A DNA stretch of 64,000 nt from Anaeromyxobacteraceae bacterium (GCA_047602405.1 JASGHJ010000002.1:3296001-3360000), one strand, 5' to 3'; positions 27,061 through 46,429 are shown, numbered from the stretch's first letter. Made by a program: numbers and translations. Notes: a model not told the origin generated them from the letters alone.

Positions 27061-27317
27061 GTGACGTTGCCGCGGGCCGCCTCGCGGGGTCTCTCCGTCC
27101 TCGGGCGCCAAGGCAACGTCCCGCCGCGGAGGGGATCCTGGAGACGGTACGGAGCTGGTGGAGACCCGCGGCGCGTCCACGCGTGCCAGCCGAGTGAGAC
27201 GTCGCGATCGGCGTGAAGTGCCCGGCTCGGCTGTCACGCTCCGCGCAGATCGCGGCTCCGATCTTGGGCGGGCCAGCCGGGCGCCCTGCGGGGCGGAGAG
27301 ACCCCGCGAGGCGGCTC
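27061..27317 (+). ncRNA. Structured ~255-nt element, copy A (candidate ncRNA or MITE/REPIN-like unit)
   Basis: Perfect 22-bp arms at 27076-27097 / 27294-27315; folds as a long imperfect hairpin; homologous to copy B. Confidence 0.55.
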
Positions 27318-27469
27318 GAGGAGTGGCAGACGTGGCGAGCACGGTGATGCTCGCGCCTTGAGTCCTGCGCGGATGGCATCATCCGGAGCGCACCACAGCG
27401 GTGCAGGCTCACCTCCGCGACCCCGCTGGTCGTCCGCGGACGCGGGCGTCTCCATCTCTGCACCGACCC

Positions 27470-27727
27470 GCGGCCGGATCGCGGGGGCCCTCCGCCCGGA
27501 GGGCCCTCGGCTGGCCCGCCCAACGACGGAGCCGCGATCTGCGCGGAGCGTGACAGGCGAAACGACGTGCCCTCACCTCCACGCCGACGCCCCGCTCGCC
27601 TGGCACGCGTGGACGCGCCGCGGGTCTCCACTCGCGGAGACGACTCCAGCTTCCCTGACGCGGCGGGCCTTTGCCCTAGGGCCCGAGGACGGAGGGCCCC
27701 CGCGAGGCGGCCCCACGGCACCATCAC
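27470..27727 (-). ncRNA. Structured ~255-nt element, copy B (inverted relative to A)
   Basis: Perfect 16-bp arms at 27479-27494 / 27690-27705; 32-nt and 30-nt blocks identical to copy A; compensatory stem changes. Confidence 0.55.
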
Positions 27728-28898: not shown

Positions 28899-31131
28899 CT
28901 ACTTCGCCGCGAGCAGCCGCCCGGCCTCCTCGGCGTGGGCGGCCTTCCCGCAGAGCTTCACGTAGGCCTCGAGGCGCTGCTTCGCGACGTCGGAGAGCTT
29001 CTTCGCGTCGTACTCGAGCTTGCCGGCGCCCCACAGGGCCTCGCAGCTCGCCGGGTCCTTGCCGAGCGCCTTCTCGTAGAGGTCCGAGAGCACGTTCGGC
29101 TTCGCGCCGCGGGCCCGCTCGGCCTCGGCCATCTCGACGTACGCGGCGGCCGCGCCGCCGGTGCCGCCCTGGCCGTACTCGTCGATGGCCGCGGTGAGCT
29201 CCACGAGCGCGCCGGGCACGTTGTTCCGCGCCCGGTACAGGCGCGCGAGCGCCACCCGGGCGTCGGGGAACTTGCCGCCGAGCTGGATGGCCTTCTGGTA
29301 CTGGCCCTGCGCGAGGTCGGCGTCGCCGGCGGCGCGGTAGGCCTCGCCCATGAGCAGCGCGAGGCGGGGGTTCTCGCCGATCTGCCCCTGGGCGCGCTTC
29401 ACGCTCTCGAGCGCGAGCTTCGGCCCGCCCTCGAGCGCGAGCTGCGCGCCCACGAGGTCGGCGACGAGCCCGACGCGCTTCGGCTCCATCGACATCGCCC
29501 GCTTGAACGCCTCGGCGGCGCCCTTCGGGTCGCCCTCGCGCAGCTTGCGGATGCCCACGAGCCGCGGGAGCTCGGCGTTGGTCGGGTCGAGCTTCGCGGC
29601 CTCCGCCTCCGCCGCGGCCGCCTCGGCCGCCTTGCCCTGCGCGGCGAGCACGCCGGCCTTGAGCGCGTGGGCGAGGGCGAGCTCGGGCTTCGAGGCCCTG
29701 AGCGCCGGCGAGAGCACGGCCTCGGCGGCCCTGGAGGCCTCGTCGAGCTGGCCCCGGCCGAGGAGCACGAGCCCCTTCCCGAGGATCGCGCCCGCGTGCT
29801 CCTTCTCGATGCGCAGCGTGTAGTCGTAGAACGCGCTCGCCTGGAGCTCGTAGCCCTCGCCGCGGCGCCGGAACTGCTCGGCGAGCAGGAACGAGAGCCG
29901 GGCGTCGCCGGGTGCGGCCTTCTGGGCCTGGGTGAGCTCGTCGCGCGCGGCGTCGAGGTCGCCGCCGCGGAGCTGGACCGCGCCGAGCGTGCCCTGCAGG
30001 AGCGGGCTCGAGGCGCCGCCCTCCATCACCGACTTCACCGTCTCCTGCGCCCTCGCGGAATCGCCGCCGGCCGCGAGGAGGTAGGCCTCCGCCGCGATGA
30101 GGTGGGAGTGCCGCTGCTTCGCCCTGGCGGCCGCCTCGACCTGCTCCTTCGCGGGCTTCGCGGCGTCGGCCTCGCCGTGCTCGAGCGCGCGGAGCGCGTC
30201 GGCGTAGGCGAGGAAGGCGCGGCCGGCGACCGAGTCGCCGTCCTTCTCGAGGATCTCGGCCGCCTTCCGGGCGGCCTCGTCGTAGGCGGAGGCCGTGTCC
30301 TTCTCGAGGAGCGGGGCGATCTCCTTGATGAGCCGGTCGATGGCCTCGAAGCGCTCCTTGCGCGCCTTCGACCAGAAGAACCAGCCGCCGAGGGCGACCA
30401 TGAGCACCACCGCGAGCGCGGCGGTGGTCGCGAACGTGCCGCGCCGGTTGCGGGGCTTCTTGACCCCGGCGACGATCGTGAACTCCTTCGTCTTGTACTG
30501 CTCGGCGAGGGCGTCGGCGATCGCGACGTTGCGTGCGCGGGAGGTCGGGGGCGGCGTGGGCGCCGGGGTCTCGGCGCCGGTGGCGGTCGCGCCGGCGTGG
30601 GCGGCGGGCGGCGCGGCGGCGGGGATCCGGGGGCCCGAGGCGCGGGGCTGCACGGTCGGCGGGCCGGAGACCGGGGTGCGGCTGGGCGCCGGCGGCGGCG
30701 GCGGGGCCGCCGAGACGCCGAACTGCTCGAGCGCGGCGCGGGTCTCCGGGTCGTCCGGGGAGACCTCGTGGGCCTTGCGCAGCGCGGCCTCGCCGGCGGT
30801 CTTCTCGCCGAGCCTGAGGTGCATGACGCCGGCGAGCCGGAGCGCGGCGGCGAAGGTCGGCCAGGTCGTCAGGACGGCCTGGATCTTCCTCGAGGCCGCG
30901 GCGGTCCTTCCCCTGGTCCGCGTAGACGCGCGCGAGGAGCACGCGCGCGGACGGGTCGTCCGGGTGCGCCTTCACGCCCTTCTTGCAGACGACCATCGCC
31001 TCCATGAAGCGCCCGGACGCGAGGTACGCCTCGGTGAGGGGGCGGTACGCGTCGGACGCCGGATCCGAGGCGAACGCGTGCTCGAGGGCGGAGAGCTCGG
31101 CGGGGCTCGGGGCTTTGGCGGGAGGGGGCAT
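28899..31131 (-). CDS. TPR protein with a central TM helix (apparent +1 frameshift near 30886)
   Basis: N-terminal TPRs (AYRPLTEAYL...ARVLLARVY) continue in the shifted frame as IQAVLTTWPTFAAALRLAGVMHL; many C-terminal TPRs. Confidence 0.8.
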
Positions 31132-31216
31132 GTGGGCGCAGGTCCGCGCCTTTTCCATGAATCGCGCGGGGTCGAATCGGTCTAACAAGCGGCCGAACGT
31201 GAGTCAAACACGCCGC

Positions 31217-32855: not shown

Positions 32856-32864
32856 GCGCCCGTC

Positions 32865-34370
32865 GTGAGCACGATCCCCGATCGCCGCGCCCTCGTGGTG
32901 GACGACAGCCTGGCCGCCAGGACCGCCGCCGCACACCTCATCGAGCCGCTCGGCTTCGACGTGGACCTCGCAGAGGACGGAGGGGCTGCGCTGCGCCTGC
33001 TGGAGCACGACGGCACCTACGACCTCGCGCTCGTCGACATCCAGATGCCCTCGCTCGACGGCCACGAGCTCGTCCGGATGATGCGTGCGCGCGGCAACTT
33101 CACCCCGGTCGTGGTCACGACCGGCGCCGTCGGTACCCGGCAGGTCGCCGCGGTGCTGAAGGTCGGCGCGAACGACTTCCTGACGAAGCCGATCGATCCC
33201 GTCCAGCTCCATCAGGCCGTCGCGCGGGCGCTCAACCTCGCGCCCGACACGCTCCGGCCCGAGACCCCGCGCGTCCTCGTCGCGGGCGACGCTGCCCTCC
33301 TCGCGACGGTGAGGGAACACCTGCCCCCCTACGTCGAGCTCGACCGCGTCGAGCCGGGTGAGGTCGACCCCGCCCTCCTCCGCGCCGCCTACCGCGCTGC
33401 GGTGGTCCGCCTCGGGGAGCCCAGGAGCTCCAGCCGCCGCGAGGAGGCCGAAGCGATCGCCTCGCGGACCGCGGAGGCGCTCCGCGCCACGCAGCCCGAG
33501 GCCGGGCGCTTCCTCGTCACACCGGACGCGGCCCCCGACCTCGGTTACGACCAGGCGCTGCCGGAGTCGACGCTGGCGGAGGCGCTCCGGACCTGCGTGT
33601 TCCCCGGCGCGGTCCGCCCGCTGGTGCTGAGCGATGACGCGCTGATCCGGGTGGCGTCGTTCCGGGGCGCACCCTCGTCGGAGCGAGCGTACTTCGAGGT
33701 CGTACTCCGCCGCCTGCGGAGCACGATCGCCCAGCTCGGCCCGACGCCGTCCCTCGTCGTGGATCTCTCGCGAGTGCCGGCCAGGACGGCCGAGGTGGAG
33801 CGTCTCGCGACCGAGGTGGTGGGCTCCTTCGAAGGGAACGACGACGGCCCGGTGATCTGGGTACCCATCGCGCTCGTGCCCTCGATCCAGCGGCTCGCGC
33901 TCCGCGCACGCATCCGCCCTCCCGGGCTGGTGCGCGCGCCGCGCGCGCTCTTCCGGTGGACCCCCGATCTCGCGACCGGAATCCAGGCCATCGACGAGGA
34001 ACACCAGGAGCTCTTCCGGAGGGTGGAGGGGCTGCTGGTCGCGTCGCGAAGCGGACGGGGCCACCAGGAGCTCACGGCGGCCTTCGAGTTCCTCGAGCAG
34101 TACACCGCGCACCATCTCGCGGAGGAGGAGGCCCTCATGAAGCAGAGCGGCTACCCCGAGCTGGGGGCACACGTCGGCGAGCACTGGGAGTTCTCGGCGC
34201 AGCTCCGGGCCTTCGCGGCGGAGCACGCGAGGGAACACTACTCGGATGACCTCGCGGCGCGCGTCGGGCGGTCCCTGAGCGAGTGGATCTACCGCCATGT
34301 CCGCCGGACCGACCGCGCGCTGGGACGGTTCCTCGCGCGGGGCGGGAAGCCGCCGGAGACGGAACGGTAG
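32865..34370 (+). CDS. Response-regulator receiver / bacteriohemerythrin fusion
   Basis: N-terminal VVDDS..D.QMP..FLTKP; C-terminal TGIQAIDEEHQELF, HLAEEEALM, H..EH and W..RHV..TD. Confidence 0.88.
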   Translation: MSTIPDRRALVVDDSLAARTAAAHLIEPLGFDVDLAEDGGAALRLLEHDGTYDLALVDIQMPSLDGHELVRMMRARGNFTPVVVTTGAVGTRQVAAVLKVGANDFLTKPIDPVQLHQAVARALNLAPDTLRPETPRVLVAGDAALLATVREHLPPYVELDRVEPGEVDPALLRAAYRAAVVRLGEPRSSSRREEAEAIASRTAEALRATQPEAGRFLVTPDAAPDLGYDQALPESTLAEALRTCVFPGAVRPLVLSDDALIRVASFRGAPSSERAYFEVVLRRLRSTIAQLGPTPSLVVDLSRVPARTAEVERLATEVVGSFEGNDDGPVIWVPIALVPSIQRLALRARIRPPGLVRAPRALFRWTPDLATGIQAIDEEHQELFRRVEGLLVASRSGRGHQELTAAFEFLEQYTAHHLAEEEALMKQSGYPELGAHVGEHWEFSAQLRAFAAEHAREHYSDDLAARVGRSLSEWIYRHVRRTDRALGRFLARGGKPPETER

Positions 34371-34387
34371 GCGGCGTCGCGCTTCGC

Positions 34388-36333
34388 CTCACAGTCAGAC
34401 CCGCTCGCTGCGCCTCCTCCCGAACTGGCCGTCCTTCCAGACGACGCCGTTCACGCGGAACTCGACGGCGTCGGGGAAGATGCCGGTGATGGTGGCGAAG
34501 CCCTCGTGGACCACGACGAGGTGGTGGTAGGCGCAGAGCGGCATGCGGTTCCAGTCGTCCTCGGAGCCGCCCCGGCTGCGAAACTCGATGTGGTGGCCCT
34601 GGCAGCTCCGGCGGCTGCACCCCGGGAACTGACAGCGCCGGTACTTCGCGCGCTGCTTCTGGGAGACGGTCTTCGGCTTCGTGCGCTCGTTGCACCAGGC
34701 CTGGATGAAGTGGCGGGCGAGCTCGCCGAGGAAGGCGCCGTCGAGGCGGGGCTCGGCGGGCGGCTTCGGCGTTGCCTCGTCTTTCCCGTGCTTTCCGTCG
34801 TGCTCGCATCCATCCACGCAGGGGGCTGACTCCTCCGCGGGGCGCTCCTCCGGCACCCGCCTCATCAGCGACACCTGGAACGCCTGCTCGAGCAGCACCG
34901 CGACGCTCCGCGGCACCCGGGCCTCGAAGAACTTCAGCGCAGACATCTGCGCGTCGGCCTTCGCCTGCACGACCTCCCTCAGCTCCACCACGGTCAGCTT
35001 CTCGGCCCGCTGCGCCATCTGGAGGAGGTCGACCTGGGGCACCTCCTTCAGGAGGAGGAGCTTCGAGTAGGTGAGCCCCATCTCCTTCGCGATCCGGAGC
35101 TCCGGCTTCTCCCAGAGGTGCTTCTCGAGCGCGGCGCGGGTCTCGATGGTGCGGGCCGGGACCCCGAGGCGCTCGGTCGCGTAGTGCCGGAAGTCCACGA
35201 ACCCCGCCTCGCGGTGGGTGTGCGTGCCCTTCACGACGGCCGAGCACCACCCCATGAAGTCGTCCCAGGCCTTGAGCTCGGAGGCGATGCCGAGGCCCGT
35301 CGCCATGAGCTCGTCGTCCGTGGCGAGGGCGTTCGGATCCACGTCGAGGGCCGCGACGGCGTGGACCGGGTCGAGGACCTCCCAGTGGGAGGTCTCGTCC
35401 TCGAGCTTCGCCTCCGCGGCGTCGCGCTTCGTCTGGACGTCGAGCGGGTGGAGCCGCCGCTCCACGGCGCGCTCCGCCTCGGCGGCGACCGACTCGTCTC
35501 CCGGGTGCTCCGACAGGTACTCCTGCGCGAGCGCCTCGAGCTGCACGTGCCGGTGCGAGCTCTCGACGAGCTCGCCCGCGAGGGCCATGGCGCTGCGGAG
35601 ATCCGCGTGGTCCTCGTCGGAGATCGGCACGCGCAGCCGGACCCACGGCTCCTCGTCCGCCTCCGCCTCCTCTGCGGCCGCATCCGGCCCCGGGAGCGCC
35701 TTCCGCTCCTTCAGGGCCTCCTTCACGAGCTGCTTCAGCTTCCGCACCGGCTGGACCTTCGCCTCCTCCACCCAGCGCTCCTCGTCGTCGCCGGCCGCGA
35801 CCGGCAGGACCGCGAGCGCCGCCGACGGGGTCACGAGCCCCTCGTACGCAGCGGCCCTCAGCAAGGGCCGCTCCCGGAGCGCCTTCGCGAGCTGCGCCGC
35901 CACCTGCGCCGCGCGCCGGCGGACGCCGAAGAGGTTCTCGGTGAGGTCGCCGAGGTTCGAGAACCCCTGCCGGGCGAGGCGGTCACCCTCCGTGAATGTG
36001 GCGAAGATCGCGCCGAGGCTGAGCTCGAGCGCGCTGCGCATGCAGGCGGCCTGCGCGAGCGCGCGCTCGAACTTCTCCGGGCCGCCCTCGCCGCGGAGGA
36101 CCAGCTCTCGAAGCTCGAGCATCGTGAAAGACGGGTACTCCCAGCGCGGCGCGTGCAGGTCCCAGCGCTCGCGGAGCGGATCCCTGCGGGCGGCGTCGTT
36201 CGCGGCGGCTACGGTCGCGGCCGCGCCCGTCGGCTCGGCACCCGGAGTGAATTCCGGGAGCGCCGCCGCGACGAGCTCGCTGGCCGTGCACGCGTCCATG
36301 CCCGCGATCCTGCCACCCCGGTCTGACGGTGAG
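34388..36333 (-). mobile_element. Candidate HNH/DUF222-like mobile element bounded by 14-bp inverted repeats
   Basis: CTCACAGTCAGACC (34388-34401) versus GGTCTGACGGTGAG (36320-36333), 13/14; deleted copy at 38216-38301; no target duplication seen. Confidence 0.5.
34395..36299 (-). CDS. HNH endonuclease with two DUF222-like helical modules
   Basis: C-terminal CQFPGC..HHI.FRSRGG....N...LCAYHH..VH; repeated GF......E.LGV..R......L...L...P.LR.A...G module. Confidence 0.88.
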   Translation of the reverse strand: MDACTASELVAAALPEFTPGAEPTGAAATVAAANDAARRDPLRERWDLHAPRWEYPSFTMLELRELVLRGEGGPEKFERALAQAACMRSALELSLGAIFATFTEGDRLARQGFSNLGDLTENLFGVRRRAAQVAAQLAKALRERPLLRAAAYEGLVTPSAALAVLPVAAGDDEERWVEEAKVQPVRKLKQLVKEALKERKALPGPDAAAEEAEADEEPWVRLRVPISDEDHADLRSAMALAGELVESSHRHVQLEALAQEYLSEHPGDESVAAEAERAVERRLHPLDVQTKRDAAEAKLEDETSHWEVLDPVHAVAALDVDPNALATDDELMATGLGIASELKAWDDFMGWCSAVVKGTHTHREAGFVDFRHYATERLGVPARTIETRAALEKHLWEKPELRIAKEMGLTYSKLLLLKEVPQVDLLQMAQRAEKLTVVELREVVQAKADAQMSALKFFEARVPRSVAVLLEQAFQVSLMRRVPEERPAEESAPCVDGCEHDGKHGKDEATPKPPAEPRLDGAFLGELARHFIQAWCNERTKPKTVSQKQRAKYRRCQFPGCSRRSCQGHHIEFRSRGGSEDDWNRMPLCAYHHLVVVHEGFATITGIFPDAVEFRVNGVVWKDGQFGRRRSERV

Positions 36334-36383
36334 AACGCATGATCCGGCTGGGGCTCAGGGAGGATTCGAGCCCCCGGGCCCCT

Positions 36384-36433
36384 GTCCCTCGTCTCCGCCC
36401 CCGCTGCGCGGGGGCTACGCTCGGGACGGACGG
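36384..36433 (+). repeat. REP-like palindrome, intergenic copy
   Basis: GTCCCTCGTCTCCGCCCC-hairpin-GGGGCTACGCTCGGGACGGACGG. Confidence 0.75.
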
Positions 36434-36450
36434 GGGCGCCTCCCGCGCCG

Positions 36451-36517
36451 CCTGGCTCGGCCCCTGGCTCGGCCCCTGGCCCGCAGCCTGGCCCGCCGCC
36501 CGGCCCGCCCGGCCCGC
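36451..36517. repeat. Degenerate 12-bp tandem repeat, about 5 copies
   Basis: cctggctcggcc x2, cctggcccgcag, cctggcccgccg, cccggcccgc. Confidence 0.75.
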
Positions 36518-36551
36518 GCGCTCGCGCAGGCCGGGCGGATCTCGGGTCAGC

Positions 36552-37454
36552 TCATCGGCCGAAGCCGACCGGCTCGAGCTCGACCTGCTCGACCAGCCAG
36601 CCGCCGTTCTTCATGAACCGCTCCCACATCGGACCCGGTGGGACGTGCGCCGGGTCCTCGGCCAGGCGTTCGCGCAGCCGGAACAGCCCGACCTGGTTCA
36701 CCCAAAGCGCCATCGGCTCACCGGCCGTGCCGAGGCCCACGGCGCCTGCGTCCGGCCGCAGCTCCCCGACGCCCCACGCGACGATCGACGTCGACAGCCG
36801 CTTCAGGTCGCCGGGCGCGTCCATGTAGACGGGGTCGAACGAGAACTGCAGCAGGTCCGGCATCGGCGCGCCCATCCGCGGGCTCACGAAGACCACCGTG
36901 TACTCGAGGTCCACGAGCGCGGCCTCCGCGCCGGTGGCGAGGTCGGCGGCCCGGGGGCCCCAGACCCAGGCGCTCGGCGCGGTCACCTCGTTCGAGGTGC
37001 CGAGGCCGTCCCCGTTGGCGTCGTTCCAGGGGTTGTAGCGGAGCCAGGCCGGCGCGTTCCGCGTGTGCAGCACGACCGTGACCTCGGCCCGCCCGTCCTT
37101 CAGCGGGCGCTCCGTGATGCTGCCCTTGAACCGCGTGCCCCACACCGGCAGCCCGTTCGCCGCGAGGTACCGGTCGACCAGCCCGGCGAAGTCCACCCGC
37201 ACGAACCTGCGGTACCCGTCCTCGAACTCGGCCCACCCGATCACGTTGCCGACGGGCGGCTCGGCGAGGAAGCAGGCCGCGTCGGGCGCGGTCCGGTAGC
37301 AGTACGTGCCCTGCGCCTGCACGAACTCCTCGATCGGGCGGTGTCCGACCTTGCCCGACCGCCCACCGTGCGGCCCCGCGAACGCGATCGCCGGGACCGC
37401 GAGCAACGACAGCAACACGAGCATCCACCTCGACCGCTGCCTCACGTTCCTCAT
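36552..37454 (-). CDS. Secreted hypothetical protein
   Basis: GAGG RBS, signal peptide (..AVPAIAFA) and typical codon usage. Confidence 0.75.
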   Translation of the reverse strand: MRNVRQRSRWMLVLLSLLAVPAIAFAGPHGGRSGKVGHRPIEEFVQAQGTYCYRTAPDAACFLAEPPVGNVIGWAEFEDGYRRFVRVDFAGLVDRYLAANGLPVWGTRFKGSITERPLKDGRAEVTVVLHTRNAPAWLRYNPWNDANGDGLGTSNEVTAPSAWVWGPRAADLATGAEAALVDLEYTVVFVSPRMGAPMPDLLQFSFDPVYMDAPGDLKRLSTSIVAWGVGELRPDAGAVGLGTAGEPMALWVNQVGLFRLRERLAEDPAHVPPGPMWERFMKNGGWLVEQVELEPVGFGR

Positions 37455-37673
37455 GGGAACCTCGCTGGTCTGGGGTTCGCTGCGTTGCCTCGGCCCGCGG
37501 CCGGGGCACGCGGGCGGCGGGTTCGAGCACCATCGGGTGCACGTACGATCCGTCCGCGCGACGCATGGTACGAGCCCTGCTGCCCACGGCAAGCCGATCC
37601 CTCGGGCTCCACCGTTGGACTGCGCCAGCGCCGCACGGAGGCGTCGGGTCACACCCGTTTCGTGCGTCCCGCT

Positions 37674-38120
37674 TCACCGCCGTTCGACGAAGCGCTTCAG
37701 GTCGTCCAGGTCCTCGAGGATCGCCTTCCTCAGCACGCCCCGGAAGAAGATCATCGGAAGCGACTTCACCTTCGCCAGGAGGCCTTGCGGCCGGGTCTCG
37801 TGCGAGCTCGTCACCACGACGTCTCCGTCGATCCCCGAGAGTCCCAGGTTCGTGATGAAGACGAAGCCGTCCAGCTCGGCCCGGGTCTCGTAGAGCTCAC
37901 CTTCGACCGCCGCCGTGATCCACTTCTCCACGGCTGCGGATTCGCCGAAGAACAGCCGGGTCTCGCGCCACCTCAGCCCGACGAGCCCGGTCGCGGGCTT
38001 CTCGAGGATCTCGATCTTCTGCACGCCGCTGAGGATGTCCGCGGCGCCCCGGATGTCGCTGACGGCGGACCAGACCGCCGCCCGGGTTCCGTTCATCGTG
38101 ACCTGGGCTTCCACGATCAT
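37674..38120 (-). CDS. SRPBCC family protein
   Basis: VW....DI......LSGV..IEIL...GLRWRETR..FG. Confidence 0.85.
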   Translation of the reverse strand: MIVEAQVTMNGTRAAVWSAVSDIRGAADILSGVQKIEILEKPATGLVGLRWRETRLFFGESAAVEKWITAAVEGELYETRAELDGFVFITNLGLSGIDGDVVVTSSHETRPQGLLAKVKSLPMIFFRGVLRKAILEDLDDLKRFVERR

Positions 38121-38215
38121 GGTGCCCTCCGGGTCCGGCGGTCGAAGGTGCCAGGCTGCCGGGGCAGCACGGCATGAACAAGCCCCGCGCGCGGTGACCC
38201 GCGTGGGCCGATGAC

Positions 38216-38301
38216 GCCTCGCCTCAGACCCGCTCGCTTCGTTCCCTCCCGAACTACGAGCTCACTGGCCGCACACGCGTCCACGCCCACGATCCTGCCA
38301 C
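38216..38301 (-). pseudogene. Internally deleted miniature of the HNH gene
   Basis: 38224-38255 matches 34395-34426 (28/32); 38256-38301 matches 36271-36316 (41/46). Confidence 0.85.
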
Positions 38302-38305
38302 GGAC

Positions 38306-40660
38306 CTACCGGACGAACGGCGGACCGTCGACTGCCGCCTCCGGCGCGCAGGCGAGCTCGCCCGCGTCCACGACCAGCGCGTCGGTCCGCGGCACCTCGA
38401 AGGTGACCCAGCAGGCCCGCGCGCCGGAGCTGAGCCGCGCCCGCCGCGGGCCCGGCGGGACGTCCTCCGCGAAGAGCCGCCCGTCCCGGCCGACCACGGC
38501 CTCGATGGAGGCGCCTTCCGTCTCGATGGTCAGCCGGGCCAACTCTGCGGGGACACGACCCTCCGCCCCCACGAACAGCGCCCGTCCGCGCAGCCCCTGG
38601 CGGCGCCGCGGCTCGAAGCGGACGACCACGCCGCCCCGGTGCGGCGGCGAGATCCGACGGGTGGTGGTGACCTCGACGCCCGGCGGGAAGGCATCGGGGT
38701 CGACCGAGAGGCGGTTCGGGTGGTGAGAGAGGAGATCGGTGACGATCACCCCCTCGCCCGACGCCGTGCCCACCGCGGTCCCGTTGCGCCGCACCGGCAC
38801 GCCCTCGGCGCCCGGGACCTCGACGAGCGCGAAGGCGTCCTGGATCGACCGCGTCGCAAGGAACGAGCCGCCGACCCACGCGAGGCCGCCCGCGACGCCC
38901 AGGTCGTAGGAGCGCCCCTCCGGTCCGCGGCTCGCGCGGGCCGTCACCTCGCCGCGTGAACCGAGCGCACGCACCTCCGCCGCGCCCGAGAGCTCGGCCT
39001 CGCCACCCGGGAGCTCGGTCCGTTCGCCGGAAACCCGCACGCCCACGCCCGCTCCGGGCGGCGGCGCGCGCTGCAGCTGGAACGCGGCCCTCCCGCGGTC
39101 GTCGCGCCAGCGCTGGTCGAAGCCTCCCCACCACCGCTCGGCGAGCGCGCCGGTGAGTGTGACGAACACCTCCGTGCGCCCGGCCGAGGTCCAGGTCCGC
39201 CGGATCGTGGCGGCGAGCTGGAGACCCCGGCCGAGCGGGCGTTGCCAGGAGCCGGCCGCGGCGAGGACGTCCGGGCCGCTCCGCGCGGAGGTGAAGGCGA
39301 TCGAGGCGCCGATCGTGCCCACCCAGGCGGCGCCGACCCCGGCGCCCAGCGAAGCCTCGAGCCGGTCGCCGGCGGCGGACGGCTGCAGCCCCGGCCGCGC
39401 CCAGCCTCCGGTGACGGCCGAGACCGCGGCGTGGATCCCCGCCGCCCGGGTCGCGCGGGCGTGCCGGAGCTCGGCGGCATACCCGGTGCCCGCGCCGGAG
39501 CGGCTCGCCCCGAGCGAGAGCTCGAGCTCGCCCAGCGGCCCGACGATCGCGGTCGCCGAACCGCCGGCGGCGACCGCCGTGGGATCGGCCTCGACGGAGG
39601 CGCCGACCGTGAGCGCCCGCGAGAGCCCGTGGCGTCCCGCCGCCACCGCCACCGGGGCGCCGTAGCGGAAGCTCTCCGCACCGAACCCCTCGCGGCCGAA
39701 GCCCGCGGCGAGGGTGAGGTCGGTGAGGCCGGGCAGGAGCAGCCGGGAGGAGAGGTAGTGGCGGGAGTCGAGGCGCGTCTCGCGACCGTAGGCGTCTCGC
39801 ACCACGAGCTCGACGGCCCGGCCGCCCTGGCCGGCGACGAGGTTCCGGAGCTCGAACTCGCCGGCCGGCATCCGCCGGCGCTGCACGAGCTGGCCATCGA
39901 CCCAGACCTCCACCTCCGAGGGCGTCTGCAGCACGCCCGCGAGGTCGAGCGCGGGCGTCGTCGTGAGCAGGGGCGCGACGGCGGGCGTGGTCTGGAACGC
40001 GATCCCTCCGAGCGCGACCCCCGAGAAGCCTGGGAGCCCGGACCCGACCAGGGCGTCCCCGACGGTGAGCCGCCCCCGCGCGTCCGGGAAGTCGCGGGTC
40101 GCGGCGGAGAGGAGGCGCACCGGAGCCCGGCGCTCCGGGAGGCGCTGGGTGAGCGTGGAGGCGAAGAGCCAGCCGTCGATGGGGCGGACCGCCGCGTCGG
40201 CGGTGAGGTCGAGGTGCTCCTCGCCCCGCGGCCCCGAGCGCGAGAGGTGGGCGCCGTAGTTGAGGAGCGCCGAGCGCGCCTCGAGCACCTCGACCCCGGC
40301 GGCGTCGGGGCGCGCGAGGTCCACGAGCGTCCGGCGCAGGAGCCGGGGTTCGGCGGTGAGCTCGAGCGTGGCGGAGGCCTCGTCGACCGCGAAGCCGACG
40401 CCCGGCGCCAGCGCGCGCAGGGAGACCCGCCCCGCGTCGTCAGCGGGGAGCCGCGCGACCTCGCGGAAGCCCGCCTCTCCGAGGTCGCTGGCGGCTACGA
40501 GCACGTCCCCGTCCGCGGCGAGGACCACGAGCCGGACGCCCTCGTCCTCGGTGTTCACGAGGAGGCGGAGCACGGCCCGGCGCGCCGCAGGACCGTCCGC
40601 CAGAGCGGGCAGGGCCGCAGCCGCGACGAGGGCGGCGAGGGCTCCGAGGGCGGCACGCAC
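38306..40660 (-). CDS. Fimbrial outer-membrane usher (archaic/Csu type)
   Basis: PSEVEVWVDG, VVRDAYGRE, LL.PGLTD and I.DAFALV.VPG..GVPV motifs. Confidence 0.88.
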   Translation of the reverse strand: MRAALGALAALVAAAALPALADGPAARRAVLRLLVNTEDEGVRLVVLAADGDVLVAASDLGEAGFREVARLPADDAGRVSLRALAPGVGFAVDEASATLELTAEPRLLRRTLVDLARPDAAGVEVLEARSALLNYGAHLSRSGPRGEEHLDLTADAAVRPIDGWLFASTLTQRLPERRAPVRLLSAATRDFPDARGRLTVGDALVGSGLPGFSGVALGGIAFQTTPAVAPLLTTTPALDLAGVLQTPSEVEVWVDGQLVQRRRMPAGEFELRNLVAGQGGRAVELVVRDAYGRETRLDSRHYLSSRLLLPGLTDLTLAAGFGREGFGAESFRYGAPVAVAAGRHGLSRALTVGASVEADPTAVAAGGSATAIVGPLGELELSLGASRSGAGTGYAAELRHARATRAAGIHAAVSAVTGGWARPGLQPSAAGDRLEASLGAGVGAAWVGTIGASIAFTSARSGPDVLAAAGSWQRPLGRGLQLAATIRRTWTSAGRTEVFVTLTGALAERWWGGFDQRWRDDRGRAAFQLQRAPPPGAGVGVRVSGERTELPGGEAELSGAAEVRALGSRGEVTARASRGPEGRSYDLGVAGGLAWVGGSFLATRSIQDAFALVEVPGAEGVPVRRNGTAVGTASGEGVIVTDLLSHHPNRLSVDPDAFPPGVEVTTTRRISPPHRGGVVVRFEPRRRQGLRGRALFVGAEGRVPAELARLTIETEGASIEAVVGRDGRLFAEDVPPGPRRARLSSGARACWVTFEVPRTDALVVDAGELACAPEAAVDGPPFVR

Positions 40661-40666
40661 GTGCGG

Positions 40667-41428
40667 TCAGGGCGCGGGAGCGGCCGGCGCGGCCGCGCAG
40701 CCCGTCGGCGGCAGCTCGAGCGTCGCGGGCGGCAAGCTCGTCCCGTCCGAGAGATCGGCGGCGACGGAGAGCACCCGCGCCTCGCGGCAGTCTGCCTCAT
40801 CGAGCCTGAGCGAGTAGACGGCCGCGGCGCCGGCGAGCACGTACCACCCTCGGGCGTCCCGCTCGAAGCGGGTCCGGCCCGCCGCGTCCTTGCCGTCGAT
40901 GCGCAGCCGCCGGACCCTGGCGTGGACGTTGCCCGGGTTCTCGAGCCTCACGTGCACGAGCCCGCCGTCGAGCCAGATCCGCGCGAGGTGCCGGCGCGGC
41001 GCCTCGCGGTCGGGCTTCACGAACAGCGGCACGCCGAGCCGGAAGGTCATCTTCACCCGGGGTTGCCCCGGCTCGTCCACCGGCAGTTCCTGCAGGTAGA
41101 CCCGGTAGGCGCGCTCGCCGTCCGCGCCGTGCGGGGCGGCGTCGAGGCCGACCCGGACCACCCGCTCCTCGCCGGCGGCGAGCCGCAGCAGCTCCGGGAA
41201 GATCACGAGCTCCGGCGCGGGGTCGTAGCGCTCCGCTCCGTCCTCGCCCTGCGTCCAGCGGGCGGCCTCCACCTGGAGCGACGCCGGAGCGGCGCCGGTG
41301 TTCCGCACCACGAGCGCCGCCGAGCGGCGGGTCGCGTCGAGGACGAGCGGGATGGGCTGCACGTCGAACGGACCCGCGGCGGCGAGCGCCGGGGCCAGGG
41401 CGAGGAGGAGCGGAAGCGCTCGGATCAT
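40667..41428 (-). CDS. Fimbrial chaperone (PapD-like)
   Basis: ERAYRVYLQELP, LGVPLFV.P and N.GNVHAR motifs. Confidence 0.88.
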   Translation of the reverse strand: MIRALPLLLALAPALAAAGPFDVQPIPLVLDATRRSAALVVRNTGAAPASLQVEAARWTQGEDGAERYDPAPELVIFPELLRLAAGEERVVRVGLDAAPHGADGERAYRVYLQELPVDEPGQPRVKMTFRLGVPLFVKPDREAPRRHLARIWLDGGLVHVRLENPGNVHARVRRLRIDGKDAAGRTRFERDARGWYVLAGAAAVYSLRLDEADCREARVLSVAADLSDGTSLPPATLELPPTGCAAAPAAPAP

Positions 41429-41435
41429 GGCCGCC

Positions 41436-41993
41436 TCACCAGTCCACGGCCACGTTCACGACGTCGGCGTAGCTGCCGTTGGGCGGCGTCGGGTTGAAGA
41501 GCCCCGAGTCGAAGATCCGCCCGTACACGGTGAAGGACTGCGTCGCGCCGGAGGCGACGCCCACCTGGCCGCGGGCGCCCACCGAGACGAGGCAGCCGAC
41601 GCGGCCGGGGACGCAGGCGCTGCCCCAGATCGTGGAGTGCGCGGGGTCCTGGTAGAGCTGGTAGGCGAGGAGCTGGAAGGGATTCCCGCCCGCGAGCCGC
41701 ATGTTGCGGGTGCCGAGGATGCCGCCGGGCCCGACGATGGGGACGTGGTTCTGGCCTTCCGAGATCTTCAGGAGGTAGTCGGTGCCCTCGGAGCACCGCA
41801 CCTCGATGGTGCCCTCCGCGGTGACGGCCGTTCCGGAGAACGCGCCGAACCCGACATCGGAGGCCTTCACGTCGGTGCACGCGCCGACGACGGTGGCGGT
41901 GACGTTCATGGAGGTGTTGATGGAGCCTGCGGACGCCTGGCTCGCGAGCAGCACGAGGCCTGCGAGGGCGGCGAGCGACAGCTTCGACTTCAT
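41436..41993 (-). CDS. Spore coat protein U (SCPU/Csu) pilin
   Basis: Signal peptide; V.ATVV..C, C..GT.Y, LAYQLY.D, VYGRI and G.Y.D.V.V motifs. Confidence 0.9.
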   Translation of the reverse strand: MKSKLSLAALAGLVLLASQASAGSINTSMNVTATVVGACTDVKASDVGFGAFSGTAVTAEGTIEVRCSEGTDYLLKISEGQNHVPIVGPGGILGTRNMRLAGGNPFQLLAYQLYQDPAHSTIWGSACVPGRVGCLVSVGARGQVGVASGATQSFTVYGRIFDSGLFNPTPPNGSYADVVNVAVDW

Positions 41994-42272
41994 GTGGGTG
42001 GGTCCTGTCTCGACCTGCGCAGGGGGACGCGGTCGCACGTAGCGTCACCCTGACCCCTGGTGAAAGACCACGCGCTCGCTTGGGGCGCGCCCTCCCGGTG
42101 GGGTGGCCCACCCGAGATTTGACGAGTGCACCCGGAGAGCGGTGGCGCGGATGTGCTAGCGAGCCGCGCTCGCAGGCGCGGAGCTCGGGCCGGCCGACCC
42201 GCACCACGGCCCGTGACAGGCCCCCCAGGGGCCCCTTCCTCTCTCCACGCACGATTCGATACCGTTCTCGCC

Positions 42273-43238
42273 ATGGCCCACTCCCGCGCCCTCGCGATCC
42301 TCGCGCTCGTCGCCCTCCCCGGACTGGCCCTCGGGGCCGACGGGTGGCGCGAGCTACGCACCGACCACTTCGTGCTCCTGACCGACGCCCCCGCGGGCGA
42401 GGCCCGCGAGACGCTCGACCGGCTCGAGGTGGTCCATGGCGCCGTCGAGGGCGCGCTCTTCTCCGGACCGCGCGCGAGCGCCCCGCTGCGCGTCGTCGCC
42501 TTCTCGAGCCGGCTCGACTTCGCCGAGCACGCCGGGGACGCGACGAGCGCCAGCGTGAGCGTCGGCGGCGAGCCGGCGATCCTCGTCCCCACCGGCGGCG
42601 ACGCGGCGGGGCTCCCGGCGCTCGTCGCGCGGCAGCTGCTGCGCGAGGCCTACCCGCGAGCGCCCATCTGGCTCGTCGACGGCCTCTCGGCCTGGGTGAA
42701 CACGCTGAACCCGACGGCCGCCTACCCGGGGGCGGGCCCCCGGGCCTCCGTCGATCCGGGCGGCCGGACCATGGCCGTCGGCGGGGTCCCGGCGTACGCG
42801 CTCGACCGCGTCCGGCCCTGGTTCGGCGGCCTCGCCCGCGTGCTCACGCGCCAGGAGCCGTTCCCGCGGACCTACGAGGAGCGCGGGCCCGACCTCGCCT
42901 GGGCGCTCGTGCACTACCTCCAGCAGCGCCACGCCAGCGCCTTCGTGGACTACCGGGCGCGGCTCGCCGCGGGGCGGGAGCCCGAGGCGGCCTGGCTCGA
43001 GGCCTTCCCGGCCTGGGATCCGAAGGACCGCGCCGCCATGAAGGCGCTCGACCGGGAGGTCGGCACCTACGTCACGCGCGGTGAGTTCGCCTACCGCAAG
43101 GTGCCGCTCGTCACGCCCTCCCTGGAGGTCCGCGAGCGCCCGCTCTCCGAGCACGAGGTGAAGGCGCTCCTGCGCGGGTTGCCGCTCGCCTGGAAGCCGC
43201 CCCGCTTCGGCACGCCCGAGCCCGGCGAGGGCTGCTGA
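42273..43238 (+). CDS. Secreted protein, DUF1570-like
   Basis: Signal peptide; W.EL.T.HF.L.TD, PIWL.DGL and AWALVHYL; no HExxH present. Confidence 0.65.
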   Translation: MAHSRALAILALVALPGLALGADGWRELRTDHFVLLTDAPAGEARETLDRLEVVHGAVEGALFSGPRASAPLRVVAFSSRLDFAEHAGDATSASVSVGGEPAILVPTGGDAAGLPALVARQLLREAYPRAPIWLVDGLSAWVNTLNPTAAYPGAGPRASVDPGGRTMAVGGVPAYALDRVRPWFGGLARVLTRQEPFPRTYEERGPDLAWALVHYLQQRHASAFVDYRARLAAGREPEAAWLEAFPAWDPKDRAAMKALDREVGTYVTRGEFAYRKVPLVTPSLEVRERPLSEHEVKALLRGLPLAWKPPRFGTPEPGEGC

Positions 43239-43388
43239 CGGTTCGCCGGCAGGCGCGCGGCGACCGGAACGCACGCCGAACTGGTCAGCGCGGCTCGACG
43301 GTCTGACCCCGGAACGACACCGCGGCCGGATCGTCCCGCACATGCCAGCCGCCAGCAGCTGCCCGTCGGGGCGGCGCCCCGATCCCCC

Positions 43389-43856: not shown

Positions 43857-46429
43857 TTAGCGTTTCGCGAGCCGCCTGTGCAGGCGATCGAGCGCCGAGA
43901 CGAGGTCCGGCCGCTCCTCGAGCACCGGCCGCAGCGGGTCGTCGCCGAGCCGCTCCGCCCGCGCGAGCGCGTTCCGGATGGTGAACCTCGCGGGATCGAG
44001 CTTCCCGTTCACCTCGCTCCACTTCAGGGGGGTCGAGACCGGCGCACCCGGCCGGGGCCGCACCGTGTACGGCGCGGCGATGGTCTTGCCGTGCCCGTTC
44101 TGGAGGAAGTCCAGGTAGACCTTCCCGCCCCGCGCGCCGACCGCGCGGGCGGTCGTCGAGATGTCGCCGTGCTCCGCCTCGAGCGCGCGGGCGAGGAGCT
44201 CCGCGAGCGTGCGCGACTGCTCGTGGGTGAGCTGGCCTCCGAGCGGCACGAGCACGTGCAGGCCCTTCTGCCCGGTGGTCTTGCAGTAGGAGGGCAGGCC
44301 GAGCTCGTCACAGAGGGCGTGCGTCGCCTTCGCGAGCTTCACCACGTGCGCGAAGGGCGCCTCCTTCGGATCGAGGTCGACGATGCACCAGTCCGGGCGC
44401 TCGAGCGACCCCGTGCCGCCCGGGCGCGGGGCCCGGCTCGACCAGACGTGGATGGGGATGGTGCCGGTGTTCGCGATCCGAGGCGAGCCCATCCTCGTCG
44501 TCGACGAGGAAGTACTGGATGTCGCGGTCGGTGTCGCTCGCGTGGATGGTGACGGTCCGGATCCAGTCCGGCGCCCACTCCGGCGCGTCCTTCTGGAAGA
44601 AGCTCTTCCCCTCGATGCCGTCGGGGTAGCGGGTGAGGACGAGCGGCCGGTCCTTCAGGAACGGCAGCATGAACGGCGCGATGGCGCGGTGGTAGGCGAA
44701 GAGGTCCGCCTTCGTGATCCCCTCGCCGGGGAAGAAGACCTTGTCGCCGTTCGTGACCTGGACCCGGGGCTTCGAACCGACGACAGCCGACGGCTTCCCT
44801 TCACCGTTCGTACCGAGCGTAGCCCCGGGACGCGGAGCGTCCCCGGGGCGGAGACGAGGTACGTCCCGCACCGCCTCCTCCACCTTCTTGTCGTCCCGCA
44901 CGCGCACGAAGACGGGATGCCGGAGCAGCCCCTCGTCGGTCCACTCGCGGTAGCTCACCTCGACGACGAGCCCGGGGCTCGACCCAGGTGTTCCCCTTCC
45001 CCCTCGGCACCGGACCTCCGCACGGAGGCGTGGCCCGCGCGCGCGGCGCGAGCCGCGCGTGGATCGCGTCGAGGAGCTTCCCGTCGAAGCCGGTCCCGAC
45101 CGAGCCCGCGTACACGAGCCCGCTCCCGTCGAAGACCGCGAGGTGCAGGGCACCGAACCGCGCCCGCGCGCCCTTCGGCGCGGTGAAGCCGACCACCGCG
45201 AAGTCCCCCGCCTTCGTGGTCCGGACCTTGAGCCACGCGCCGGAGCGGCCGGCGCGGTAGGGCGCGTCGGCCTTCTTCGCCATGACGCCCTCGAGGCCCA
45301 TCGCCTGGACCCTCTCGAAGAGCGCGACGCCCGCCCCCGGCACGTGGTCGGCGTAGCGGAGCGCGCCGAGCTTCGGGAGGAGCTTCGCGAGCACCTCCTT
45401 CCGCGCGAGGAGCGGCAGGTGCCGGAGGTCGAGGTCGCCGACCGAGAGGAGGTCGAACGCGAAGAGCGTCGCCGGCCGCTCGAGCGCGGCGCGCGCGACG
45501 TCGTCGGCGCGGCCGGCCTGCGCGCGCCCCTGCAGCTTCTGGAAGCTCGGGCGGCCGTCCGGCTCGAGCACCACCACCTCGCCGTCGAGCCGCGCGTCCA
45601 CCGGCAGCGCCGCCACCGCGCGGGCGAGCTCCGGGTAGAGCGCGGTCGCGTCCTGGCCGCTGCGGTACGAGAGCGTCACCCGCGCGCCGCGCCGCTCCGC
45701 GGCCAGGCGGTAGCCGTCGTACTTGAGCTCGAAGAGCCAGCCCGGATCGTCGAAGGGCGCGTCGCGCGACTGCGCCAGCATGGGCTCGAGCGGGATCTGC
45801 CCCGCGAGCGGCCGCGCCCCGAGCCGGCGCGCCTCCCCGAGCACCTCGCCCGCGCGCGAGGCGCCCTGCGCGAGCTCCTCCACCGTGAGCCCGGAGAGCA
45901 CCGAGGCCTCCTGGAACGGGCGGTCCTTCCCGGCCCAGCCGTCGCCCCGGTGCTTCATGAGGAGCCACTGCTGCTTCCCGCCCTCCTGCTTCTTCGTGCG
46001 GACGAGCGTCCACTCCCCGCGCAGCTTGTAGCCCTCGAGCGTGAAGACGAGCTTCCCAACGCGCAGCCCCTCCTCCGGATCGGCGTCCACCGGGCGCCAG
46101 GTCCCCCGGTCCCAGAGGATGACCGCGCCGGCGCCGTAGTTGCCCGCCGGGATGAGCCCCTCGAAGCCCGCGTACTCGACCGGATGGTCCTCGACCTCGA
46201 CCGCCATGCGCTTCTCGGCGGGATCGGCCGACGGGCCCTTCGGCACCGCCCAGCTGCGCAGCGTCCCGCCGAGCTCGAGGCGGAAGTCCCAGTGCAGCCG
46301 CCGCGCGGCGTGCTTCTGGACGACGAACAGGCGCGCGCCGTCCTGGCCCGGCGCCGCGGCCGGGCCGAACGGCTCCGGCGTGCGGCCGGGGTCGCGCTTC
46401 TTGCGGTAGCGGTCGAGGCGGTCGGGCAT
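43857..46429 (-). CDS. ligD: NHEJ DNA ligase D, PE-LIG-POL order (apparent +1 frameshifts near 44974 and 44480)
   Basis: QKHAARRLHWDFRLE (PE); ELKYDGYR and EGVMAK (ligase); RYPDG..FFQK, DLDP and KTTG.KGLH (polymerase). Confidence 0.93.
44804..44862 (-). repeat. REP-like palindrome inside the ligD coding sequence
   Basis: GTACCTCGTCTCCGCCCC-hairpin-GGGGCTACGCTCGGTACGAACGG, read as VPRLRPGDAPRPGATLGTNG. Confidence 0.75.

Follow-up and report, generated by a model that had tools for sequence, protein, structure and literature searches.

The 634-aa HNH gene of the window (the whole 64,000-nucleotide stretch of DNA analysed here) belonged to a multicopy family without a transposase, whose copies had been replaced as whole genes at slots shared with a sister species. 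A 13/14 inverted repeat brackets the gene; it is real, but it is not an element end. The model that best accommodates the sequence data, to which we give a probability of about 45%, is a damage-induced, self-addressed nickase that would drive gene conversion among its own copies. The 6.16-Mb genome holding the window is referred to as G000 and that of the sister species as G010. The features of the window are collected in Table 1.

Table 1. Features in and around the HNH gene, in positions of the window.
Feature	Position	Strand	Remarks
Variable slot holding the gene	32856..43386	.	cargo differs in the sister species; four more distant genomes lack the slot
Response regulator-hemerythrin gene	32865..34370	+	abuts the stop codon; absent from the slot in the sister species
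Downstream arm of the inverted repeat	34388..34401	+	7 coding bases and 7 bases private to this copy
634-aa HNH gene	34395..36299	-	two tandem DUF222/ParB-DBD-like HTH modules, then Zn-HNH
Zn-HNH nuclease motif, residues 556-598	34506..34634	-	catalytic residues present
Module 2, about residues 327-536	34692..35321	-	matched by the DUF222 N-terminal third in homologues
16-bp palindrome GCGCAGA-YR-TCTGCGC	34937..34952	.	A-Q-M-S-A codons; predicted site of the protein
Module 1, about residues 73-266	35502..36083	-	hhalign; ParB DBD structural match
Likely PafBC-type promoter	36307..36328	-	-26 box 36323-36328, 10-nt spacer, -10 hexamer 36307-36312
Upstream arm of the inverted repeat	36320..36333	+	overlaps the -26 box; not an element end
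Short hairpin in the conserved non-coding leader	36350..36374	-	common to close copies
GTAG-type REP-like repeat	36384..36436	-	found 175 times in the genome by blastn; precedes 8/10 close copies
103-bp miniature	38224..38326	-	two deletions inside; joined to the 3' end of an usher gene

A sequence-only reading of this DNA had proposed a self-contained selfish element with its ends set by GTCAGACC. Its description of the locus was accurate: the ORF lies where it was placed, the arms CTCACAGTCAGACC and GGTCTGACGGTGAG match at 13 of 14 positions, the stop codon falls within one arm, and the other arm lies 21-34 nt upstream of the ATG. The same reading had counted paralogues lacking a conserved repeat at both ends against mobility, and such paralogues were found, with the downstream arm missing. 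The 13/14 match occurred in one of ten close G000 copies, the remaining nine scoring 6-10/14, and a score of at least 11/14 was seen in none of the 39 homologues with a promoter box in other genomes, a subset of the 41 non-redundant full-length homologues outside G000. Seven bases of the repeat are coding (GGTCTGA, the last codons plus stop), and this string terminates five of the ten close copies as well as the miniature. The extra 6/7 match past the stop codon had a probability of about 0.003 for a single copy, rising to about 0.04 across 15 of them. When paralogue flanks were aligned, there were no shared ends at the repeat: homology crossed the upstream arm and continued for 50-115 nt, through the hairpin and, in 8/10 copies, the REP-like repeat. 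At the other side, homology among the close copies inspected ended with the stop codon, and no downstream flank was common to them. Moreover, the promoter box that makes up the upstream arm also stands before unrelated genes. We therefore consider it extremely unlikely that the 14-bp GTCAGACC repeat is a pair of element ends, in spite of the match in the window's copy and its low chance probability there. At most, and speculatively, it could record a one-off microhomology join on entry of the response-regulator gene. What survived of the proposed selfish element was its multicopy, transposase-free and polymorphic nature, together with the miniature; the ends assigned to it did not.

The upstream arm overlaps the -26 box of the likely promoter. 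The -10 hexamer lies 7 nt before the ATG, and the transcript of the window's gene is likely to be leaderless. Its -10 (CAGGAT) and -26 (CGTCAG) are each one base off consensus. A YGTCAG box was present 28-31 nt before the start at all 17 G000 loci, and a box of this type at 27-32 nt in 39 of the 41 non-redundant homologues from other genomes. The strict form TGTCRG-N10-TAnnnT had 17 matches in G000, versus 0-3 at each of twelve other spacers. These preceded ssb (two copies), uvrD, a gene that we take from its domains to be radA-like, six TnpB-type genes and two HNH genes, and five of them preceded no nameable gene; recA1 bears an imperfect box and recA2 none that was convincing. The reported PafBC consensus is tGTCgg(N10)tA(N3)T, read by PafB R46 and R50 (PMC8635444). 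Two tandem PafB/PafC-like WYL pairs are encoded in G000 (C1:2007305-2008581 and C1:232989-234193), one of which combines a PafC HTH above cut-off with a PafB-like partner carrying both GTC-reading arginines; the PafB-like protein of G000 matched 6SJ9/7P5X. Because the consensus and spacing of the box are common to repair genes and a PafBC pair is present in G000, the upstream arm is likely a PafBC-type DNA-damage promoter, and we infer that DNA damage would induce the window's gene through PafBC.

The two modules of the protein were homologous to each other (hhalign 99.8%, E 4e-28, both halves being taken from a single 86-row alignment). The Zn-HNH residues C556, C561, H569, H570, N584, C589, H593 and H598 were intact, each being conserved in at least 94% of the aligned rows bearing a residue (79-85 rows), and the C-terminal Zn-HNH was found in 55 of 86 homologues. 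The two-module architecture with a C-terminal Zn-HNH, as originally described, was thereby confirmed. Each HTH module is followed by a beta-alpha-alpha element, a strand plus two helices, which by pattern alone would be RHH-like. Pfam returned weak HNH-type matches alone for the 634-aa protein, and Pfam and NCBIfam gave no match to transposase or recombinase families (DDE, HUH, Tyr/Ser), in line with the motif inspection that preceded this work. PF02720 (DUF222) had no match in the protein at E<=0.1. It matched 7/86 homologues, and its cut-off was passed by two of 43 homologues scanned singly, which aligned to its N-terminal third; the best score in G000 was 18 bits versus a cut-off of 24.4. 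The label "DUF222-like" thus stands for a kinship that appears remote but real, and not for a PF02720 match in this protein. HTH_ParB matched 10/86 homologues.

The AlphaFold model of the protein (pLDDT 88, pTM 0.84) was compared with known structures. Its HNH aligned with that of IscB (Z 7.6, rmsd 2.3, 64 aligned), McrA-type domains matching too, and module 1 (model 87-205) aligned with the ParB DBD 6s6h (Z 6.2, rmsd 3.5, 104 aligned). Spo0J (Z 5.5) and KorB (Z 5.0) also matched the module, at Z values similar to those of other helical rows. A Noc match was returned by Foldseek at a probability of 0.91 and E 0.76, and the PDB and viral libraries contained no match at E<=0.001. Since the chain has two DNA-binding modules and one HNH, nicking rather than double-strand cutting would be expected, and the model suggests a single-chain pseudo-dimer that nicks. 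An OMEGA IscB or other RNA-guided HNH was rejected: the IscB model scored 14 bits versus a cut-off of 175, over the HNH portion alone, and the leader, considered as a guide RNA, had no Rfam match and folded no better than shuffles (z 0.22).

A genome-wide search, as the sequence-only reading had advised, showed that the gene is not single-copy. Tblastn identified 16 loci in G000, to which a 17th, internally deleted, was added. By amino acid identity, four of the 17 copies were at 94-100%, six at 65-70% and one at 45%, with the remainder near 25-30%. Frames were unbroken in eleven loci; the remaining loci are broken, perhaps through errors of assembly. G000 also has about eleven HNH relatives with a single module. 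The nearest proteins by source name came from Anaeromyxobacter sp., and homologues were present in all 24 other same-genus genomes searched. At E<=1e-40 the family was found in 8/10 other genomes of the same taxonomic family and in 0/140 other genomes of the phylum, with at most nine candidates scored per genome. A metagenome scan gave two loci and a genome collection scan one; plasmids and phages gave no match to the family, and four sequencing runs yielded contigs of relatives alone, with no usable joints. Five pairs of copies from within one genome had dN/dS ratios of 0.04-0.17, and six wider pairs had ratios of 0.24-0.54.

Slots were then compared between G000 and G010, whose flanks are 92-94% identical, leaving out the divergent G000 loci E10, E15 and E16. 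Nine of the ten G010 copies occupied slots also filled in G000. In the close subfamily, with five shared slots, orthologous copies were only 75-84% identical. Two subtypes were distinguished in G000, 97-98% and 96-100% identical internally, and the subtype had been swapped at three of these five slots, the window's among them. One divergent copy showed plain inheritance, being 89% identical to its orthologue, and some slots persisted across distant species. Six slots were polymorphic, five copies of G000 having no counterpart in G010 and one of G010 having none in G000; all six were filled by other accessory genes in the alternative allele, and cargo often switched straight after the stop codon. 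Including a seventh slot from another pair of genomes, neither a clean empty site nor a target duplication was observed. The sequence-only reading had already noted that no target duplication is visible, and the empty-site alleles that were to support mobility did not appear in clean form. In the seventh slot the empty allele consisted of 46 bases of unrelated sequence, and the copy found there in a more distant species is 68% identical. Old insertion scars may be lost, because the relatives are about 7% diverged. The direction of gain or loss was sought at one slot with outgroups among 37 genus genomes, and synteny was too decayed.

The same slots bear on whether the family is a true transposable unit, bounded by the upstream palindrome or REP leader on one side and by the stop codon on the other, and copied to new places by its own HNH or by a RAYT/TnpA Y1 protein in trans. 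The sharp boundary at the stop codon, which held in all close copies inspected, is what such a unit predicts. In three G000-only slots the extra segment started at or within ~30 nt of the palindrome, the miniature retains both ends, and of six weak Y1_Tnp matches one was above cut-off. Of 17 palindromes of G010, 7 also lay no more than 120 nt from a break in synteny, versus 1.6 expected, a figure inflated by the intergenic location of both palindromes and breaks. A moving unit is nevertheless hard to reconcile with alternative alleles that hold other genes or unrelated bases at all seven polymorphic slots, with sister-species copies at slots mostly shared with G000, and with the lack of a plasmid or phage match. 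On balance we judge it unlikely. A conventional insertion sequence or TIR transposon was rejected, there being no conserved TIRs, target duplication, clean empty site or DDE/HUH/Tyr/Ser domain.

The family carries in its Gln-Met codons a word of 13-16 bp that is conserved at the DNA level. The Ser codon at the palindrome was TCT in 10/10 intact close copies, a codon that accounts for 1.2% of Ser codons across the genome. In other lineages the codon following Gln-Met/Leu was T-ending in 31 of 37 genes, these rows being related, and the background for a T-ending third codon was 3.8% (CGT) and 10% (TGT). Exact sites of the 14-bp core numbered 32 in G000 versus at most 6 for shuffled palindromes. 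The palindrome was present in two of 37 genus genomes, those two with this subfamily. Word sites were found within 1 kb upstream of 12/17 close genes, often doubled, and the doublets lay 165-430 nt upstream of most close copies; the window's gene has no upstream word site. All ten upstream sites with an asymmetric centre were inverted with respect to the in-gene copy.

An inverted partner of the word was detected in 22/56 genes versus 33/1680 control words, eight genes without a located Gln-Met motif having been dropped beforehand; 34 genes had no partner. In 15 genes from six other genomes the partner is in-gene, 668-671 nt upstream, inverted, and set in RTQLP/RTHLP codons, and it matched the QL/QM variant of the word in 15/15 genes. 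In another genome, where the partner is 1.3 kb upstream, it follows a third variant. This covariation amounts to 3-4 independent lineage-level changes, not 15. Because the partner can lie upstream of the likely leaderless promoter, the pairing would operate at the DNA level. In the genome G013 the word was amplified to 3-5 in-frame copies in seven genes, four of which were read. Neither the symmetrised word predicted for other lineages, which showed no enrichment, nor the upstream palindromes of homologues outside G000 and G010, which shared none, extended the pattern, and dispersal of the word was limited to these two genomes. The literature search returned no description, in the portions of text available, of this HNH family or of an in-gene word with an inverted partner.

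From these patterns, the 634-aa protein is predicted to bind the in-gene word. A single-module HNH gene at C2:2602921 carries the same perfect palindrome, and its product could be the real owner of the site. Of nine single-module HNH genes that were checked, five (C2:2602921, 3583011, 34369 and 2801128; C1:1595065) contain a palindrome, situated 470-670 nt into the gene, four of these palindromes being private and one the dispersed word.

The word might instead be an operator, acting in a repression loop that limits the damage-induced expression of a host or anti-phage nuclease, in which case ordinary RecA conversion and slot turnover by host recombination would account for the rest. The position of the word doublets upstream of most close copies, the ParB/KorB-like fold, purifying selection, the long-lived slots and a promoter common to host repair genes all agree with this reading. 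Conversion among 13E12 paralogues is likewise described without demonstrated nuclease action in the part of the source available (PMC13061034). An operator does not readily explain the 15 genes that have both sites in coding sequence, far from the promoter. Nor does it easily explain whole-gene swaps between subtypes 22% apart, since swaps between such diverged subtypes are difficult for passive conversion. The broken copies, the miniature and the in-frame amplification of the word are a better fit to a selfish, break-prone locus. We regard the operator reading as possible but doubtful.

In the nickase model, which we favour, DNA damage would switch on the promoter of the HNH gene through PafBC. 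The single-chain, two-module protein would bind the word in its own gene and nick there, and repair of the nick from another copy would allow one copy to overwrite another by break-induced gene conversion. Conversion could thus sweep one subtype across existing slots. Occasionally, nicks would leave deletions, in-frame amplifications and swapped cargo. New slots would be rare, arising when recombination from the dispersed word or the REP leader replaces resident accessory genes. It is the assignment of conversions, deletions and in-frame amplifications to nicks that we infer here. Several points count against the model. Passive conversion can homogenise any paralogue set, and conversion has been reported for PE/PPE and ESX genes as well (PMC13061034). 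The stable divergent copy and the slots persisting across distant species also speak against it, as do the 34 genes with no inverted partner, the missing upstream site of the window's copy, the small number of lineage-level changes behind the covariation, the symmetrised word without enrichment, the dispersal confined to G000 and G010, and the perfect palindrome in C2:2602921; self-cutting is costly unless tightly gated. The further proposal of a transposase-free selfish class, defined by a damage-gated pseudo-dimeric HNH nickase with an inverted word pair in its own locus, is put forward tentatively. If true, such a nickase would sweep through existing copies, exchange adjacent cargo and scatter its own site over the chromosome, and would supply the missing mechanism of the 13E12/DUF222 repeats.

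The surroundings of the window's copy were also inspected. The miniature consists of the leader end, the -10, the first ~10 codons, the last ~10 codons and the stop, in blocks of 46 nt at 89% and 32 nt at 88%. It lies 1.9 kb from the window's gene and replaces the end of the usher gene, and may be a full copy collapsed in place. The chaperone-usher operon (SCPU, PapD, usher; 38306-42038) is 78% identical to a G010 operon that occupies a different slot. A LigD gene is apparently split over separate frames at 43857-46429, and a TPR gene near 28899-31188 looks frameshifted; both are possibly assembly errors. A nested foldback of ~640 bp at 27074-27713, with arms of 47-73 nt that are 82-91% complementary, resembles a MITE or REPIN with a near-clean empty site in G010, where ~700 bp are missing across a 4-bp gap and related pieces occur elsewhere.

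Further observations were made on other loci. A divergent G010 copy (L065) joins the downstream flank of one of two G000 copies (C2:818367 and C1:1360122) to the upstream flank of the other, through rearrangement between paralogues or an assembly swap. At L087:3543-4475, a gene that we take from its sequence to be RAYT-like lies in part of a slot that holds an HNH gene in G000. Six copies of a 645-aa TnpB/Cas12f-like gene are present in G000 (C1:600318, 1538075 and 645844; C2:800038, 2144439 and 2703433), two of them identical and each with a PafBC-type box, and one adjoins a truncated copy of the HNH family. Eight near-identical genes in G000, e.g. C2:769492, are presumably of the group II intron reverse-transcriptase type, as read from their sequence.

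The 13E12/DUF222-HNH repeats are common, damage-induced and recombination-prone, and a 2026 preprint states that they have no defined function (PMC13061034). The present family offers a named candidate site, natural variants in which site and partner change together, and whole-gene replacements recorded in two genomes; with these, binding, nicking and conversion become open to direct experiment in a soil bacterium that is harmless. A damage regulon of the PafBC type in Myxococcota, used by selfish nucleases and TnpB genes, is suggested as well. Such promoters share consensus and spacing with those of the PafBC regulon, and G000 has a PafB-like HTH beside a PafC HTH; the papers cited, as far as available, demonstrate the regulon in actinobacteria alone, whereas the host here belongs to Myxococcota. 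The accessible part of the source on Myxococcus xanthus lists one tandem WYL pair and gives no regulon for it (PMC12288472).

Among known systems, the closest is REP13E12 of Mycobacterium tuberculosis (DUF222 PF02720 plus HNH), which likewise consists of multicopy HNH genes without a transposase. REP13E12 is also a target of integrating elements, and one family copy here (L130, G015:C1:3317272) breaks ~500 bp from its 3' end into an integrase-like frame, which we take to be a tyrosine integrase and which echoes phage attachment in the 13E12 repeats. The mycobacterial genes have a RecA-NDp/PafBC-type promoter and are induced by damage (PMC3381160), and the same promoter motif is found on the Anaeromyxobacter family. 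The 13E12 repeats are conversion hotspots, with 87 events (PMC13061034), and recombination and inversion occur between their copies (PMC13157036); multiple copies with conversion among them and a C-terminal Zn-HNH are features here too. The present family differs in that the module is doubled in one chain, DUF222 falls below cut-off, and the host is Anaeromyxobacter (Myxococcota). The module also resembles the DBD of ParB, as in ParB-parS, Noc-NBS and KorB-OB, a likeness that at Z below 8 on helices is merely suggestive. ParB-family proteins place two DBDs on one palindrome (PMC7383237). Unlike them, the 634-aa model has no CTPase domain and is fused to a nuclease, and it carries two differing DBDs in one chain, so an asymmetric word would be permitted.

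Homing endonucleases spread by cutting and by repair from the nuclease gene, without terminal repeats. Free-standing HNH enzymes and single-chain pseudo-dimers of this kind are comparable to the present family in the mode of spread proposed for it and in having no terminal repeats. A homing endonuclease gene was nonetheless rejected as an identity for this one, on the grounds that the predicted site is intact in the gene and the alternative alleles share no junction motif. Homing genes interrupt their own site, whereas this gene, with no intron or intein around it, contains its predicted site intact.
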